Source: Torpedo marmorata
Taxonomy: Eukaryota
Reading direction: 5' to 3'
Assembly (NCBI GenBank): GCA_977017645.1
Contig: OZ360219.1
Location: 161,944,001-162,008,000 of the forward strand
DNA: 64,000 nt
Both the position numbers and the translations under genes were made by a program. Below the pieces are notes generated by a model. The model was not told where the DNA came from, did no database searches, and saw only the letters and a program-made list of their open reading frames with translations. Numbering within the stretch: position 1 is the stretch's first letter; the number at the start of each line of letters is the position of its first letter. Positions 13,004-36,472 of this stretch are shown piece by piece.

Positions 13004-14339
13004 CGTGCGCGGTCCCGGCTTCCTGACAAGTCCAGCAGAGGGGGCTGGGAATTACAGGTAGACCTTGTTTCAATTGGGCACCTATTCCTGTCACAGACAC
13101 TGGAGATTCCTGGGTGGGAAAGCGTGAGGAGTGTAACCGTACGGATTTATTTCCTTGATGTATTTCCCTTGCCAGGTTTACGAGTGTGTCGTCTTCGCAC
13201 TGGTCACGAATCCAGCCGGTGCAATGATCATAGGTGGGATTAAATCCCCGGTTAAGTGCGGTCAGCTCCTGAGATCTCAGTTGTCCTTTTAACTTTCACT
13301 TTTAGTCCCGGGAGAATGTGTCCACACTTCCAACGATTCAGATCTACAGGACCGATGGTAATATGATTAAATGAATCAATTCCCGCCAGGGGCCATGTTT
13401 ATACAGTGTATCAAAGATGATCACTTAATTCTCTGCGGAACTGCTTTCACAGTCTTTGCACGAGTCCAAACGGAGAGAGCCCGTGATGGAGACGAAGCCG
13501 GTTATTTAAAACGTGCCGAGCTCGCACTAAAATCGACACTTTGACCCCAGCCGGTTGCAGGAAGTTTTCCAGATGAAGAACATCAGTGCCTTTAGCCTGA
13601 AACCAATCTCTGCCGACGGTATTTGATATCCCGAATGTACATTAAACTTGCGATGGGCTGGCTGTACACTTTTAACCTCGGTCTTTTCCTTTATGCCAAA
13701 TAACGTCCCTTCCTCTGATTCGCCACTTTAACCCGAGATGGGGCTCCAGGTCATTGCCCAGTTACCCGGACGAGTTAGGGATCTGCCATACGGTTTTAGT
13801 CCAAGGAATATCACAATCCCGATTCTCTCATCGAGCTCCCGAGAAAGAGAGTTCTTCCGACCAACACTTTCGCTCAGACCAGAGCTGGAGATTGTTTATA
13901 AAACGCTGAAAGTCCACTCCCCTTTCTCTTTATCGACAACCTTGTTTCCGAGATCGGAGATCAAGCCGGCAGACAGCTGAAAATGTTCTGTCTGCAAGAT
14001 TATTTTTTAACGTCTAGCTCTCATCTAACATCTTCCAAAAGATTTCCTCCTGGCTGCACAGGTTGATATAAAAAGCGTGTTTCCAGGTCATGTGAGGATG
14101 ATGAGCTGAGTGTCAATGCAGGTGCTGAATACGTAATGGAAACGTCTGAAACCTTGGAGAGTTCCGTTGCTATCGACCTATACTACAACACCATAGTGCA
14201 GCCTACTAATGCGCGCACATATTCAGCAGCGGTCTCACTCAAAAGGTTCGAACAGCAGGAAAGCCATCTGAGGATCCGGTGAAACCAAGACGATTTCTTT
14301 ATAATTCCGAGTAATCCCACTTCGCAGAGTTCATCTTTT

Positions 14340-27335: not shown

Positions 27336-28347
27336 AGTTTACCATTTTCAAGTAGGAAAATTAGAAATGTACCTCCCTGCTCTGAAATGTAATCCCTCTC
27401 ACAACAAAGGCTAACATCTCATTTGCCTGCTGCATCTGCAAACTAGTTTTGTGACTCATGTAAAAACACTCCCAGATTTATCTAATTAACATCACACTGC
27501 AATTTTTTACCATTTAAATAATAGTCTGATTTACTATTTTTCCTTCCAAAGTGGATGACCTCACATTTATGGACTTTGCACTCCATCCGCCCGAACCTTT
27601 CCCACTCACTTAAACCATCTACGTATATGTCTCTGCAGACTCTGTATCCTCCACACAATTTGCTTTACCACTCAATGTAGTGTCATCAGCAAACATAGAT
27701 ACATTGCATTTGATTCCCTCCTCCAACTCATTTATGTATATTAACTCAATCAGTAGCATGCATGCAACTTCATCATTTGGCACTCTTTTCTCAAGTACAT
27801 CTGAAGTTTCTCCAGACATGCTATTCTATACTTCTTATCAAACCAGGTTTAAAAGAGTGAGTTGATATGTCATGCATGGTGTTACAGGTCGTGGTGGAAT
27901 CCAATTCTGCTGCTGTCGATGGCCCACAATTCCTCACAGAGAACTAGTGTTCTACATAGATTTAAAGAGATTCTTATCTACCACAAAATAGTCTCGCATT
28001 TCATGCATTTTTAGATCACCTTACTGGAAGCAGAATGAAAGAAATGAAAATTCCAATTTTTAAAATAAAATATAGTAATATCAGAAGCACTACTGTACAA
28101 TGAGTGGAGACAAATCTTCACAATGCTTGCTATAAGACTCCCCATGAAGTCCAATAATAGGGACCAATATTCCTGAGATCTTGCGATCCAAAATTTATTG
28201 ATTTCAGTTGGATTCTATGTCTTGGAAGATAAAGGAGGAAGGCATTTTCCCTTTTAATGATTTGGATTTAGTTTAATGACTTTAATTCAAAACCATTTTG
28301 GTTATTTTGTTATTTCTTTTTTAACATGTTATTTAGTGCCTTTGAAT

Positions 28348-28807
28348 GAGGGGATGTATTGAGAGTATTCTGAGCAATTGCATCACCGCTTGGTTTGGTA
28401 ACTGTACCACCTCGGACCGAAAGACCCTGCAGAGGATAGTGAGTTCAGCGGAGAAAATTATTGGAGTCTCTCTCCCCACTATGACAGACGTCTGCAACAC
28501 ACGATGCATGAGGAAGGCTAAAAACATTGTGAAGGACTACTCACACCCCTTTGGTAAACTGATTTCCCCTTTGCCATCTGGAGGGAGGTGCCGGGGCACT
28601 CGGGCTCGTACGTCCAGACTGTGCAACAGTTTTTTTCCCCCGGGCCATCGGGCTCCTCAATTCCAAGACATATATGTGTATTAGCATGTTATAGTTTTTT
28701 CTATTGTATTATGATATTTATGTACATCTGCCCATGGTCCTGGAGAAACACTATCTCGTCTTACTGTGTATATGGTAATGAACGACAAATAAAGATGACT
28801 TGACTTG
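28348..28807 (+). mobile_element. Rex1/Babar-like LINE 3' fragment
   Basis: RGCIESILSNCITAWFGNC...LPSGGR...RLCNSFFP and a (TGACT)n tail that abuts the BEL 5' LTR. Same subfamily as 63521-63917. Confidence 0.8.
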
Positions 28808-29348
28808 AAGAGCCATAGGCTTGGTTATTTACCTTCATCGCAGCGTTCCGATGGTCCCAGCGGGTTTCGGAGGAGTCATGGAGATTAGTAGGCCGTGCTA
28901 GGCCTATTGAGTACTCTGCGCATGCGCGGGAGTGCCGATGGGCGCATGCGCAGTGGGGAAGTGGCTGGAGCAGGCGCGGTGGAGTATGCACGGTGAAGCA
29001 TGCGCAGTGGAGCATGCGCGTGAATCAGCAAAAGAAGTATTATAAGAATATGGTGACTTAGAGAAAGGTGAGTGAGATCGCCATAGCTTTCATTGACCGT
29101 TTAAAGGAGCGTTAGAAAGAATTGTTGTAAAGGAACGTTTTAAAGGAATCGTTATTAAGCATCATTATGAAGAATTGTTTATATTTTGTTAAAGAAGATA
29201 TTTCAGTCATTGAAGATTGCTACAAGTCATCGTGTGTAAATAAAGTTTTTGAACCTATTGGACTTGTTAGTAAATTAATTGAAACGCGTCAAGAACAGAT
29301 ATCTCACCTAGCCTCCAAGTGACTATTTGTTGGATTGAAGTCACTATA
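28806..29348 (+). repeat. 5' LTR of BEL element
   Basis: Aligns with 35957-36472 apart from a ~27-bp extra repeat near 28990-29020. Its first bases are obscured by the Rex tail. Confidence 0.92.
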
Positions 29349-30320
29349 TTTTAGTCAATGAAATTTTATTGTTTGGAACAGAAAATTGAAGGAAAGAAGA
29401 TAGAATAATCTCTCTGTGCTTTGGACTGATATTTAAATTAAAATGGTGGCCATCTTGGAGATGCCTTGAGTTAGGGGCAGTTTGTAATCCACATCCATCT
29501 GCCATGAGTAACAGCCAGAGAGGGATTTAGAGCTTCAAATCTTATAGTAAAGTGTCCTATAAATACGTTGGAGAAACTATTTCTTAAAAATCAGTGATAT
29601 TATTGACGGATGCTGCGGTGGAAACTCGTTTGTGAATAGCAGCACATTACAGCCATCTGAAGTGGTAGGCATACATCTGTGGACTCCTTCTGTGTATCTT
29701 TGGCAAGTTTGAACACAGTTTGGATTTGCTGCCGCTAGTCCATTGGGGACTGTTGATTTGGCTAGTGTTGTGCATGCTCGAAGGACGGTGGAACAAGACG
29801 AGTAAAATGGCCGCAGCTGACGCTGCTGTTGAGGAACAACATATTGAAGACATGAAGGTTGTGGATCTCAAAGAAGAATTGAAGTGACTGAAACTAGATA
29901 CAAGTGGAAATAAAAATGTTCTCATTGCAAGACTGAAGCTGGCAATGGAAGAACAGGCAGCTTCGGTTGATGGGAATGAAGAAATTGCAAACTCATTGCT
30001 GTCTTCATGTTCAGTCATTGTCTTTTGCAATGTGGAAATGGCTGAAAATGTGTCACTAAATGATGAAGAGGATGAAGATACAAAGGATGTACAATTAGAA
30101 TTGGAGAAAGAGGTAAGTCAGAAGACAACATCTGATCTTCAGGATGAAATACAAGCATGTGACAGTGTCTCAAATGTTGAAAGCAGGAGAAGCAAACAAA
30201 GTTCTGGTTCAAGCTCCAGAGTTTCTCGTACTTCAAGTCCTGCATCGTCACGTACAAAGGTTGAAGTTGACTTGGCCACTCTTCTTGCGCAACAAAAAAC
30301 GCTTAAGGATAAACATATTT

Positions 30321-32361
30321 CATGTGTAATTCCAGAAAAAGAGAAAACTATATTTAATTGGAGATTTGATTCATCTTTATTGAAAAGGATAGATTCTTGT
30401 GAATATATGAGAAGGGAAATTCAAGAATTTTTGAGGATAAATGATCAATCAATTAATGATAAATTTATAATTTGGGAAACTTTAAAGGCTTATCTTAGAG
30501 GTTTAATAATAAGTTATTCGGCAAAAATTAAAAAAGATTATTTGAAAGAAGCAGAAAAATTAGAGAAAGAGATTGAGATTATGGAAAAAGATTTACAGAG
30601 AAATAAATCAATTCGTAAGAGAAATTGTTTAATGAGGAAAAAGTTACATTATAATTTATTACAAACGTATAAAACGGAAAAATTAATAGAAAGAATGAAA
30701 CAAAGATATTATGAATTAGGAGAAAAGGCTCATAAAGTTAAAGCATGGCAATTGATAAAGGAACAAGTTTCTAAAACTATAAATGCTATAAAGAAAAAAA
30801 ATACTGGTGAAATAACTTATAAACCCCAAGAAATAAATGAATCTTTTAAAGATTATTATCAGAATTTATATAGATCTCAGGTTGTTCAGGATGATTTGAA
30901 AATTAATAGATTCTTATCTAGAATTACTTTACCTAAATTAAATACTCAAAATAAAAATTTTTTAGTTTTACCTTTTACGATGAGAGAAGTTAATGAAATA
31001 TTATCGACGTTAAAAAGTGGTAAATCCCCTGGTGATGATGGATTTCCAGTAGAATTTTATAAAGAATTTAAAGATTTATTGATACGTCTATATATGGAAG
31101 TATTAAATCAGATTACGGAAACTCATTTATTACCAAAAACTTTTTTGAATGCTATTATTACAGTTATACCAAAGAAAGATAGAGATGTATTAAAAACTGA
31201 GTCATATAGACCTATTTCTTTATTAAATGTAGATTATAAGATTATGGCAAAAATTTTGGCTAATAGAATAGCTAAATATTTACCAAATTTGATACATTCA
31301 GATCAAGCGGGTTTTATTAAAAATAGATATTCTAAAGATAATATAGCTAGATTATTAAGTTTAATTAATTTTCATAAAAAGAAACAAGATTTACCATTGG
31401 TGGTAACGTTGGATGCAGAAAAGGCTTTTGATAGATTAGAATGGAATTTTTTATTTAAGGTGTTAGAGAAATTTGGTTTTGGGAATACTTTTATAAATTG
31501 GATTAAAACTATATATAAGGAACCTACAGCTAAAGTAATTACAAATGGACAAATATCGTCAAAATTTTCTTTAACGCGTTCTACAAGACAGGGTTGTCCT
31601 TTATCACCAGCTTTATTTGTTTTGGCAATAGAACCTTTAGCTGAATTGATTATGACAGATCCTAATATAGTAGGGATTAAAGTCGGTATGGAAGAGCATA
31701 AGATTTGTAAGAATGAAGTAGGTTCATTTGTTCATTCTACATGGTTATGTCCAAAGATTCAAGATTTTTGGCTTTAAGTTAAGAATTTTTTAGAGAGAGT
31801 TTTTAATGTTAGGTTTCCAATGGATCCTATGTTATTTCTATTTGGAGATATTAGAAAATTTAGTATTAGGAATAGATTGAATATGTATCAGGTAGAATTT
31901 TTGCGTAATGCTTTAGCTGTTTCAAAAAAATGTATTGCTATTACTTGGAAATCAGATTTAGATTTGAATTTAGATAGATGGCATGCAGAACTTCGTTCGT
32001 GTATTCCTTTGGAAAAAATTACTTATAATTTACGTAATAAATATCATTCTTTTTTAAAAATTTGGAGCCCATATATGAGAGTTATGGGTTTGAGGATTTG
32101 AAATTTTTGGAAATCAGATCTATTGGCGAGTTTAACCTCCAGATTAAAATTGGTTTTCAGATGGTTCTCTCCTCACTATTAATCTCTTTTCTTTTTCTTT
32201 TTTCTTTTTCTATTTTTAGAATAGTGGGGTTAGGGGGGTTAGGGAGGGGTGGGAGGGTGCGGGGGGAGGAAATTTATATCACTGTATTTTGGAAACTATA
32301 TATTTTGAATTATGTATTATGTGATTTAAAAAATTTAAATAAAAGAAAAAAAAGAAAAAAA
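30321..32361 (+). mobile_element. L1 LINE, 5'-truncated with ~1.3 kb internal deletion
   Basis: 16-bp TSD AAGGATAAACATATTT (30305-30320 and 32362-32377), TT|AA target, polyA tail. ORF2 motifs KSPGDDGF, YRPISLLN, DAEKAFD, TRQGCPLSP. Confidence 0.95.
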
Positions 32362-32389
32362 AAGGATAAACATATTTTAGAAGGACAGG

Positions 32390-32597
32390 GGGAGCAGCTA
32401 AGGCAAAAGGAGGAGCAGCTAAAGCGGCAGCTAAGGAAAAGGAGGAGCAGCTAAGGCAAGAGGAGGAGCAGCTAAGGCAAGAGGAGGAGCAGCTAAGGCA
32501 AGAGGAGGAGCAGCTAAGGCAAGAGGAGGAGCATCTAAGGCAGCAGCTAAGGCAGAACCAGGAGCAGCTAAGGCAGAAAAAGGAGCAGCAGGAGCTG
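32390..32597 (+). repeat. 21-bp coding minisatellite (EEQLRQE)n in BEL gag
   Basis: Unit GAGGAGCAGCTAAGGCAAGAG, ~9 perfect or degenerate copies. Confidence 0.92.
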
Positions 32598-34989
32598 GAA
32601 GCAAACATTACTATTGCCAGGGCCAGAAAAAAGGTACTAGAAGGCTCAATGGTATCTGGTGCTCGGAGTAAATTATCTAAAGTGTGCGATGATAAGAAGT
32701 TATATTTTAAAAAAGAGCCACAGGAAAAGAAACCAACCAAAAGGGTAGATATTTTAGTACCAAGGGTATAAGACTTCCAAAGACAAGGGCAAATCCTCCA
32801 AGAGCATGGTGTTATCGCGTCGCATGTACCAGTGGTAACATCCAAAGACAAAGCTGCGGCTTGGGTTCGGTCAAACAATGCAGCTCCCTTGGCATTCGAA
32901 TCAAGCATCAGAAATATGGGAGAAACTACACCAGTGAGGTTTCCAGATACATTACCTGTAATAAGAGGCAGTGAACAGAGCAATGTATTGTCATCCAAGG
33001 GAAGACAAAATGAAATTGCTGCATCATTGATTCAGTTACAGTCTCTGTCTTCTTTGCCCAAGAAAGAGATTCAAACTTTGATGGTGATCCACTTCAGTAC
33101 CAAGCGTTCATGAAATCTTTTAGACGCAATATTGAAAATAAATGCCAAGACCCTGATGAATGTCTTTATTATTTGGAAATGTTCACAAAGGGACAGCCAA
33201 GAGAACTTGTAAAGAGTTGTCAACATATGTCCTCAGAAAGAGGATTAGACAGAGCTAAGTCTTTACTAGAACAACATTTTGGCAACAAGCATCAAATTGC
33301 TTTAGCTTATATGGATAAAGCTCTTAAATGCACATCAATAAAACAGAATGATGTAAAGGCTCTACAAGCATATACTCTCTTTTTAAGAGGATGTTGTAAT
33401 GCCATGGAAGATATCGATAATATTCATGAGCTTGACGTGCCTGGTAATATGCGAATCATCTTAGATAAATTACCTTACAAGTTGTGGGATAGATGGAGAA
33501 ATTTGGCTTGTGATTTACAAGAAAATTATGGTCGAAGAGCTACCTTAAAGGATTTGGTAGATTTCCTTGAACAACAGGTGTACATTGAAACAGATCCAAT
33601 ATATGGAAATACCAGAGACAATTCAATGGGGAACAAAGATGTAAGGAGGTCTAACTCACAGCCTAGTCTGAAATTGAAAAGGAGTACCTTTGCTACTAAT
33701 GTTTCAGTTATAAATAAAGAAAAAGATAAAGTAAATAAGGAAAAGGAAAGTTTGCCTGATGAGAAGAGTTGTTTTTTCTGTAAAGGTGGACATGCTTTGG
33801 AAATGTGTTTACGGTTGGAAAAGAAGGAACATAATGAGAAGATCACTTTCTTAAAGGAAAATGGAGTATATTTTAGCAGCCTGTGTAAAGGGCACATCAG
33901 TAAAAACTGCGAGAAGCGAATTAACTGTAACATATGCAATTTGAAGCATCCTAGAATGCTGCGTATCTATCAAAGAAACAATGAATTGAAAAATGCGCAA
34001 ACAGAAACAAAGGAAACATCAGAAAACAATGTTATAACCTCGGTTCAGACAAGTGGTCTTACCGGGGCCAGTATGGATAACTGCAAACTTTCAATAATGC
34101 CTGTACAAGTCAAGACCAAGAAAGGGGATGCAACAGTAGATACATATGCTTTTCTTGACCCAGGCAGCACTGCATCTTTTTGCACGGTGGGATTAATGAA
34201 CAAATTTAATATTCAAGGAAGAAGGTCAAGAATTATATTGAAAACCATGGGGCAAGAAAAGGATTGTTTCAGGCTGAGAGGTTGCTGGATTGGATGACAA
34301 AGAATTGTGCGATCTTCCAAGTTTATATACTCAGAAGACTATGCCTGTGCACGAAGGAAACATTCCGCATCAAAATGATTTCCATCATTTGTCTTATCTG
34401 TGGAAGGTTTTTTTACCTGAAGTTAACTCTGAGATAGAAATGCTGATTGGTTCAGATGTACCAAAGGTTTTGGAACCACTAGAAGTAATACGGAGTAGAG
34501 GGAATGGACCTTACGCTGTTAGAACCAAGCTTGGTTGGACAATCAATGGACCATTGGAAAGAAATAATGATATTGCACAGGAACAGTTAGCAATAAATGT
34601 TAACAGAATTTTGGTTGTGAAATTTGATGAGTTAAGGGAAGAGCAAAAGATTGTAAATAAGAAAGTCACTTTTGAAGAAAAGAAAACAGATCAATGTGAA
34701 AATAAATCAAAAGCATTTAAAACAACATTGAATGAATTATTTTCATCAGAAATGGATGAAAATGAAGTATTAGAAGATGTTGCAAAGAATACTAGTGATT
34801 ATTCCTGTGTAAGTGAATCTGAGGCAGGAATAAAACAAGTGACTGAGAACAAATTTGAAAGTAGATTTTGTAGTTCAGAGGTTACAGCAGACAAAGTCAA
34901 TGAAGAAATGTTGCAACGTGATGTAAAACTGGAGAACACAGAAAATTGTGCTGTTGGAATAAAGAAGAATGCGAATGATAATTTAATGC

Positions 34990-35530
34990 AATTGAATTCA
35001 GAGAACAAAATGTTGAAAGGGGAATTGGAAATATTGGATAATCATGAAAACAGTAAACAAAGATTTAATTGTAAATAAAATTCGCGAAGTCAGAAAGCGG
35101 AAGAAAAGAATAACTGCTGAAGAAATAAATACAGTTATTGAAGAAAGAGATTCAGCATTATTAAGATGTAAAAGGTTGGAGGAAGAGATTCATATTTTGA
35201 AAGACAACAAGTTATTGGTTAATAACACAAAACAGTTGATTATAGAAAACAATCAAGAATGTAAATTGAAGGTTCAGGTATTAACAATGCAGAAAGAAAG
35301 TGATATTGCATTGCAGCAATATAACAAGCAAGATGAATAAATTCAAAAATTTCAAGTTTACCACAGCAGGTTTGACAATAGAAGTACCAATGTATCACAT
35401 GATATTTTCACTTCAGATCAAGTTATTAATTTCTCGGAAGGAACTGAGACTGAATTGAAAGTTGCAAATTTGGATTTGGAATTGCAGGAAAAGGCAATGG
35501 AGACCAGAGTGGTTAAAGAGACTCGTTTAT
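34990..35530 (+). pseudogene. mipol1: Intronless MIPOL1-like coiled-coil sequence inside the BEL element
   Basis: LIVNKIREVRKRKKRITAEEINTVIEERDSALLRCKRLEEEIH...NNTKQLIIENNQECKLKVQVLTMQKESDIALQQYNKQDE*IQKFQVYHS aligns with recalled human MIPOL1 IIVDRIYKTKECKMRITAEEMSALIEERDAALSKCKRLEQELH...NNMRHLTAENNQERALKAKLLSMQQARETAVQQYKKLEEEIQTLRVYYS. Confidence 0.75.
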
Positions 35531-35956
35531 TAAAATCGAGAGGATCAAATAAATATTCAAATTCTAGTTCTAAGAGTTTCAATTCTTCATATGAGAAGTG
35601 GAATGCTGAAGAAAGGAATAAAGTGAAACAACATGCTGAAGAAGTACCTCGTGTTAAATTCAAAAGAAAAAACTATCTATTTTGTCTGAGGAAGATTTGA
35701 GGTTTACTGGTCGATGTTCTAACTCAAAGATTCTGGAGATAAAAGAACTTTGATAAGCACAAACTGATTGTATTTGTTGTTGTTGTATACTACACAGGTT
35801 ACAGACTTTTATTGATCCAGAGTTATGCTAAACTCTGGTCTTGTGAAGAAAGAAGATTTGTATATTGTTTGAATGTTATATGGTTATTGTTATTTGTAAT
35901 TGATTGTGTAATTATTATTTTAGACATTGCATCTTGTTATAATAATTAGGGGCCGG

Positions 35957-36472
35957 TGTAAGAGCCATAGACTTGGTTAGTTACCTTCATCGCAGCATTC
36001 CGATGGTCCCAGCAGGTTTTGGAGGAGTCATCGAGATTAGTAGGCTGTGCTAGGCCTATTGAGTACTCTGCGCATGAGCGGGAGTGCCGACAGGCGCATG
36101 CGCAGTGGGGAAGTGGTTGGAGCATGCGCGGTGGAGTATGCTCGTGAATCAGGAAAAGAAGTATTTTAAGAATATGATGACTTAGAGGATGGTGAGTGAG
36201 ATCGCCATAGCTTTCATTGAACGTTTAAAGGAGCGTTAGAAAGAATCGTTGTAAAGGAACGTTTTAAAGGAATCGTTATTAAGCATCGTTATCAAGAATT
36301 GTTAATATTTTGTTAAAGAAGATATTTAAGTCATTGAAGATTGCTACAAGTTATCGTGTGTAAATAAAGTTTTTGAACCTATTGGACTTGTTAGTAAATT
36401 AATTGAAACGCGTCAAGAACAGATATCTCACCTAGCCTCCAAGTGATTATTTGTTGGATTGAAGTCACTATA
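35957..36472 (+). repeat. 3' LTR of BEL element
   Basis: TGTAAGAGCC...GAAGTCACTATA, a direct repeat of the 5' LTR. Confidence 0.92.

Follow-up and report, generated by a model that had tools for sequence, protein, structure and literature searches.

A BEL/Pao retrotransposon family of Torpedo marmorata with pol replaced by spliced brca1, mipol1 and Elongin A sequence, including a back-spliced joint likely taken from a circular RNA

The BEL/Pao element described here raises the question of what a retrotransposon has put in the place of its polymerase, and by what route the substitute was acquired. The element lies in a 64,000-nucleotide stretch of Torpedo marmorata DNA (contig OZ360219.1, positions 161,944,001 to 162,008,000, forward strand), which we call the window and in whose coordinates positions are given. 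An earlier note on this DNA had proposed that reverse transcriptase, RNase H and integrase were exchanged for a captured MIPOL1-like host sequence. We propose, with a probability of about 0.7, that the element belongs to a non-autonomous BEL/Pao family in which pol was replaced by spliced brca1, mipol1 and Elongin A sequence, and that a back-spliced joint in the mipol1 part was likely acquired from a packaged circular RNA through template switching. The element is built as follows:

28808..29348, + strand: 5' LTR, first three bases unseen; a LINE 3' tail abuts
29807..34646, + strand: BEL gag-protease frame (SAP, DUF1759, Cys-His knuckles, protease), decayed in the window copy
30321..32361, + strand: L1-like LINE, a later insertion outside the BEL family, with poly(A) and a 16-bp target duplication (30305-30320, 32362-32377)
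35734..35956, + strand: BEL pol tail, with stop 35751-35753, 3' untranslated part and polypurine tract
35957..36472, + strand: 3' LTR, TG...TA ends

Comparison with autonomous copies bears out the replacement. The element is 84-88% identical to them until 34646 and again from 35734; about 3.35 kb of pol is absent in between and 1,087 bases of other sequence (34647-35733, here called the cargo) stand in its place, after which the frame re-enters the last pol codons. Reverse transcriptase, RNase H and integrase, which related intact copies possess, are absent from this interval, and because none of them follows the protease the element is classed as a non-autonomous BEL/Pao derivative. The gag-protease region has 86% DNA identity to autonomous copies, its product is 61% identical to a 2,007-residue BEL polyprotein (P0101) of a kind that bears PF05380, and DUF1759 is recognized with an E value of 2.9e-8. 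Intact BEL elements also occur in the 6.2-Gb genome, their frames running to about 2,020-2,130 codons and their LTRs being near-identical. Among 20 stretches around PF05380 matches, 15 are 84-90% identical to the window until about 34646, most of them resuming at 35734; the remaining five, at 66-77%, are BEL copies of more distant kinship.

The window copy is a decayed member of a cargo-bearing family. Its gag is broken, among others by the inserted LINE (RVT_1, E 2.6e-30), and its cargo frame is broken in three places: near 35058, and not near 35045 as first read; at 35338, where the in-frame stop already noted lies within mipol1 exon H; and near 35670, a second break that the earlier note had missed in reading a single frameshift and that causes the stop at 35700. 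Many other copies are unbroken at these places, and the family frame mostly continues to the old pol stop at 35751-35753. The paired LTRs, described from the start as present and similar, differ at 26 of 513 aligned bases and by one 28-nt gap, and the polypurine tract is in place. A target duplication was looked for at the 5' end of the window copy and not found; the duplication and the first bases of the 5' LTR are hidden because a LINE 3' end with a short repeated tail (28340-28807) directly abuts the LTR. The LTRs of BEL/Pao elements usually have TG...CA ends. Those of this lineage begin with TG and end mostly in TA (29343-29362 and 36467-36472 in the window), sometimes in CA, alike in cargo and intact copies. 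TGG is expected at the usual tRNA primer site after the 5' LTR, and the bases found there do not start with it. Within gag, a 21-nt repeat coding EEEQLRQ (32387-32606) varies in copy number among elements. Between the cargo and the 3' LTR there is no room for env.

The cargo, between the BEL protease and the last pol codons, consists of spliced exons of three host genes in frame (the mipol1 exon letters A-I are labels of the present analysis):

34642..34755, + strand: brca1 148-nt exon, nt 11-148 less a 24-nt deletion; 104/114 bases match the host exon
34756..35060, + strand: first part of the brca1 large exon (ending at about nt 306), spliced to the preceding exon; ~83% to host
35061..35166, + strand: mipol1 exon F, nt 66-171; 89% to host
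35167..35271, + strand: mipol1 exon G; 90/105 bases match host
35272..35366, + strand: mipol1 exon H up to the splice donor; 79/92 match; in-frame stop at 35338 in the window copy
35366..35367, + strand: back-splice-type junction, where the last base of exon H is followed by the first of exon B, which lies upstream in the gene
35367..35511, + strand: mipol1 exon B (nt 1-74) fused to exon C (nt 18-90) through an in-frame deletion
35511..35665, + strand: Elongin A large exon, nt 895-1052; 129/155 match host
35676..35731, + strand: Elongin A later exon, nt 6-61; 50/56 match host

The identification of the cargo as MIPOL1 thus stands in kind and not in extent, the mipol1 part being confined to 35061-35511 and the remainder belonging to brca1 and Elongin A. 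A 107-residue frame (35017-35337) matches 99 proteins among 185 candidates, the best being a shark MIPOL1 (63% identity, E 2e-23), beyond generic coiled-coil scoring, and the named matches are all MIPOL1 bar one otherwise-labelled entry with the same two Pfam domains. The brca1 part, in the longer version present in copy L172, finds 2 matches among 1.84 billion representative proteins, these being a skate and a shark BRCA1 homologue (E 1.6e-34 and 3.6e-17). The Elongin A part of the same copy is recognized by Pfam (E 6.7e-16), and the closest named proteins are from rays, the host Elongin A exon being 90% identical to one of them. Pfam gave no match to the three cargo frames of the window or to young cargo, the set used being one without MIPOL1 families. 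All three host genes were mapped with their introns in the source genome, mipol1 on C40, Elongin A on C41 and brca1 on C61. In older copies the spliced brca1 exons number up to four and those of Elongin A up to five, all in normal order and mostly 88-98% identical to the host, as against 80-91% in the window copy. The proposal of a captured spliced host mRNA is therefore right as to splicing, with the amendment that three genes contributed and that the mipol1 part is back-spliced rather than a piece of linear mRNA.

The joints between the parts show microhomology of 6 nt at the two BEL-cargo borders and about 2 nt at brca1/mipol1, with filler at mipol1/Elongin A. In L195 (6990-7008) about 19 nt lie between mipol1 exon D and Elongin A, perhaps a remnant of another captured RNA; a search allowing 2 mismatches found nothing like this filler in the three host gene regions or in L118. 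Three near-identical Elongin A-bearing stretches on small contigs (L219, L220 and L221), possibly duplicated contigs, lack brca1 and mipol1 in the part fetched. Four cargo-bearing copies are situated in introns of the host mipol1 gene itself (C40, 64340113-64341366, 64407835-64409083, 64486954-64488201 and 64494695-64495937).

That the cargo travels as part of a non-autonomous family, as the earlier note supposed, is evident from the number of its copies. Four mutually exclusive junction motifs have 239, 3,951, 6,212 and 2,718 exact matches, at 13,120 places together, and the reversed-motif controls have 0 matches for each; the total is a floor, to which tandem arrays and duplicated contigs add some. 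For one motif, which marks sister subfamilies, all 8 sampled matches proved to be gag-protease-cargo elements. That motif had been designed for the young subfamily, of which it fits only 1 of 20 loci, and the young motif was counted separately. Divergence between paired LTRs is highest in the oldest type (median 7.4%, 8 pairs found among 27 stretches), followed by the window type (6.3%, 15 pairs among 21 stretches), the autonomous BEL elements (1.4%, 13/13) and the young type (0.16%, 15 pairs among 16), some copies having identical LTRs. Exact 5-bp target duplications are present at L139, L142, L145, L147 and L151 among 15 rows, and most young copies have them as well. Over exons F, G and H the median identity to the host is 94-97% for the oldest copies, 83-87% for window-type copies and 80-86% for young ones.

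A gag-protease tree built on all 56 rows joins the window type to the autonomous family and sets the oldest types apart as a clade of their own. The synonymous distance of gag-protease to the intact copy L118 is 0.22 for the window type and 0.66 for the oldest type, while the synonymous distance of the cargo to the host is 0.21 and 0.04 respectively. From the tree and these distances we infer that the cargo moved between BEL backbones by recombination, apparently passing from an old backbone to the one that the living autonomous elements carry. A sister subfamily (L201:7620-8500, L202:7580-8460, L226:7580-8440) has an Elongin A 5' piece or exons before brca1 and fragments of IARS1 and then NDC80 after Elongin A (E 4.8e-77 and 3.2e-8), these last two being identified by protein match and not by host exons. 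Because this subfamily adds IARS1 and NDC80, capture is habitual in this lineage.

The fusion of the cargo to Gag-protease in one frame, also proposed earlier, is seen directly in the young copies with LTR pairs, 11 of 15 of which have open Gag-protease-cargo frames of 1,240-1,356 codons. Spacing was compared in 30 window-type copies over 9 intervals from the protease to the pol stop, and its mode is divisible by three in 9/9, the in-frame counts being 26/29, 23/30, 24/30, 30/30 four times, 14/29 near the 3' end, and 26/28; some out-of-frame rows (brD>miF40, BEL4600>brA) are alignment artefacts and were recomputed with anchors. Private indels, by comparison, are multiples of three in 2 of 34. 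Not one stop is fixed over the 318 cargo codons, which differ from the host by 140 changes, about 4 stops being expected for the 98 changes assigned to the lineage, and stops make up 29 of 668 private changes. Against a kept frame stand the 14/29 interval and the oldest subfamily, which mostly ends in a frame other than that of pol (1/17 in the pol frame). The frame of the cargo and its stop-free state are kept, and amino-acid constraint is mixed.

On balance we lean, by a small margin of belief, towards a tail that is mainly an in-frame stuffer and not a working BRCA1, MIPOL1 or Elongin A protein. The tail may also, with the same origin as proposed below, now be a working protein part whose mipol1 coil aids particle assembly or co-assembly with a helper polyprotein and which spread the cargo for that reason, a reading that is the chief alternative and that we hold possible but rather doubtful. 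The shared cargo variants of 20 young copies include 23 synonymous changes where 13.5 are expected from mutation types (p 0.003) and 0 stops where 3.9 are expected, and the synonymous excess in the mipol1 part (14 vs 6.5, p 0.0009; brca1 part 8 vs 6.1, p 0.24) argues against a pure stuffer, these tests being among 18 rows tested and open to synonymous differences imported by recombination between subfamilies. Singletons of old copies are neutral (59 vs 66.3 expected), and the mipol1 F-G-H block has survived every deletion and backbone change. However, the fixed cargo differences between the window and young types are unconstrained (18 synonymous vs 20.1 expected, p 0.76), unlike those of the protease (17 vs 9.8, p 0.009); the cargo dN/dS to the host, at 0.73, is not distinguishable from that of private changes (p 0.08); and deletions have removed the Elongin A domain along with half of the B and C exons. 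The predicted two-copy fold of the mipol1-derived part scores 0.09, too low to bear on either reading.

Alignment of the cargo to the host mipol1 exons, which the earlier note had recommended, reveals exact splice joints in the order F-G-H and then B-C; F is represented by its 3' part, and C is followed by about 18 nt of D. In copy L042 exon H runs exactly to its last base before the GT donor, and directly behind it exon B starts exactly at its first base after the AG acceptor; F/G, G/H, B/C and C/D are exact colinear splice joints. The H/B joint is shared by the element copies, while the host gene has 206 kb between exons B and H. By threshold 62 of 67 copies keep it in register (64 by eye), a count that leaves out L219-L221 as stretches without mipol1; it comprises 30/30 window-like copies, 18/19 picked by MIPOL1 score and 14/18 picked by Elongin A score. 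Of the five others, two from this last set prove exact on inspection by eye, and the remaining three have respectively a 4-nt duplication, an insertion and no exon H. No mipol1 exons outside B-H were found in the copies, queries with the C-terminal part and exon A matching only the host gene.

A putative parent circle of exons B-H, 780 nt or 260 codons in length and flanked by introns of 49.6 and 61.8 kb, is likely the simplest source of this joint. Circular MIPOL1 RNA, of whatever exons, is listed in human (PMC8783515), as is circular Mipol1 RNA in mouse (PMC9888537). A linear spliced RNA with a repeated exon block, arising by trans-splicing of two pre-mRNAs or from a since-lost tandem duplication, predicts the same exact joint and to that degree weakens the explanation by a circle, and it accords with a captured mipol1 piece (about 600 of 780 nt) that never exceeds one round. 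We nevertheless consider this improbable, as each exon is single in the present locus, nothing outside B-H has been captured, the flanking introns are long and circular Mipol1 RNAs are known in the two mammals above. A present-day tandem duplication of mipol1 was rejected, every exon being single in the 320 kb between host exons A and I.

It is very unlikely that reverse transcriptase jumped between two ordinary mipol1 mRNAs and struck both exon borders by chance. A 3-nt microhomology at the H/I and A/B joints of the linear mRNA, which would span the H/B joint, favours such a jump and counts against the circle, and the family does make internal jumps; the probability that a random backward jump hits both borders is nevertheless only about 1e-4 with four registers allowed, a value that shared AG ends raise somewhat. 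An actual internal duplication, in L173 (6336-7437), consists of tandem repeats of an F-G-H-B unit that are 100% identical and joined from B nt 102 to F nt 68, away from exon borders, in contrast to the splice-exact H/B joint. Later insertion of a processed pseudogene into a single BEL copy, for which the earlier note had named a single occurrence with its own target duplication and poly(A) as the marks, is refuted by the copy counts: the cargo replaces part of the internal frame with spliced host sequence instead of interrupting it, has neither poly(A) nor a target duplication of its own, as in LTR-mediated retrocopies, and recurs in thousands of elements whose LTR ends are flanked by 5-bp duplications.

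Returning to the circular RNA, we suggest that the copying took place inside the particle, because the back-spliced joint sits at a template-switch position within an LTR element. Following the template-switch model (PMC5131818), and in line with the 6-nt microhomologies at the two BEL-cargo borders, host RNAs, the mipol1 circle among them, would have been packaged and copied inside a BEL particle. Reverse transcriptase would have joined the 780-nt circle close to where exon D begins; from there it would have copied backwards through C and then B, passed over the H/B joint, continued through H, G and F, and finally switched to a brca1 RNA; Elongin A, and in the sister line IARS1 and NDC80, would have been acquired by further switches, and frame-keeping deletions would have trimmed the chimera. 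The weak microhomology at brca1/mipol1 and the filler of about 19 nt between mipol1 and Elongin A speak against this route. The resulting element would make Gag and protease with a tail of about 350 residues instead of Pol, borrowing reverse transcriptase and integrase from the autonomous BEL family, and the in-frame stuffer may let translation proceed almost to the 3' LTR, so that no early stop intervenes and the element's own RNA is packaged in cis. A fuller version is that the lineage built a new tail from a circular RNA and two mRNAs, that the mipol1 coil was selected for co-assembly with the helper and that the family records the packaging of circular RNAs by LTR particles; this we offer as speculation that is more probably wrong than right.

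In acute transforming retroviruses pol is replaced by host coding RNA fused to gag, and replication depends on a helper. The BEL family resembles them in its gag-fused host coding RNA in place of pol and in a presumed helper dependence, so that the analogy with oncogene capture made in the earlier note applies to the capture step; it goes no further, as there is no env and no sign of a transforming function, the cargo is without the known catalytic domains of the parent proteins, and the spread is in the germline and not by tumour selection. Closer are the LTR-mediated retrocopies of Tan et al. 2016 (PMC5131818), which include mosquito BEL18_AG, five zebrafish cases and the mouse four-gene 'Super' retrocopy. 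In these, too, spliced mRNA takes the place of a stretch of the internal frame, several parent genes contribute and the product retroposes further as a non-autonomous unit; they also show microhomology at the switches, a feature that the BEL family may share. The cases seen there are young with few insertion sites, and the word 'circular' is absent from that text, whereas the BEL family has back-spliced cargo, five host genes over its subfamilies, transfer between backbones and a long-kept frame. Maize Bs1, as cited there, similarly carries pieces of three unlinked genes as a chimera inside a non-autonomous LTR element; it is a plant case, and the passage does not mention a back-spliced part.

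The nearest precedent for the joint is the 33 high-confidence mouse pseudogenes derived from one circle, circRFWD2 (Dong et al. 2016, PMC4897178), which share the reversed exon-exon joint, the restriction to exons of the circle, the lack of poly(A) and LTR sequence around them. The LTR link there, in the main text of that paper, is an enrichment in the flanks, the mechanism is called mysterious and the route of circRNA retrotransposition is left open; the BEL joint, unlike these, lies within the element's own frame between protease and pol tail and recurs at >13,000 places. In the open-access literature we found neither a report of the present family nor one of any amplifying LTR family whose frame contains a back-spliced host RNA. 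LTR elements that capture mRNA and pseudogenes made from circRNAs have thus been described separately, and a back-spliced RNA within the frame of a spreading LTR family appears to be new.

Such a joint inside an LTR element makes the circRNA retrotransposition route testable and, if the circle origin is true, old copies preserve an ancient circRNA joint. With five host genes sampled, the family is a large-scale case of a selfish element shuffling exons in one capture after another, and it would make up about 1% of the genome if copies average 5 kb. The thousands of sense brca1, mipol1 and Elongin A fragments may draw piRNA silencing onto the host genes. Three sequencing runs, none on record as RNA, contain the cargo family, and the greater depth over the 3' end in X1 carries no weight as a sign of expression. 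In L198 (4923-10000) a young cargo element is nested within an old-type one, and at C1:1498499-1518377 five junction motifs at 4,964-base spacing form a tandem array of the element.
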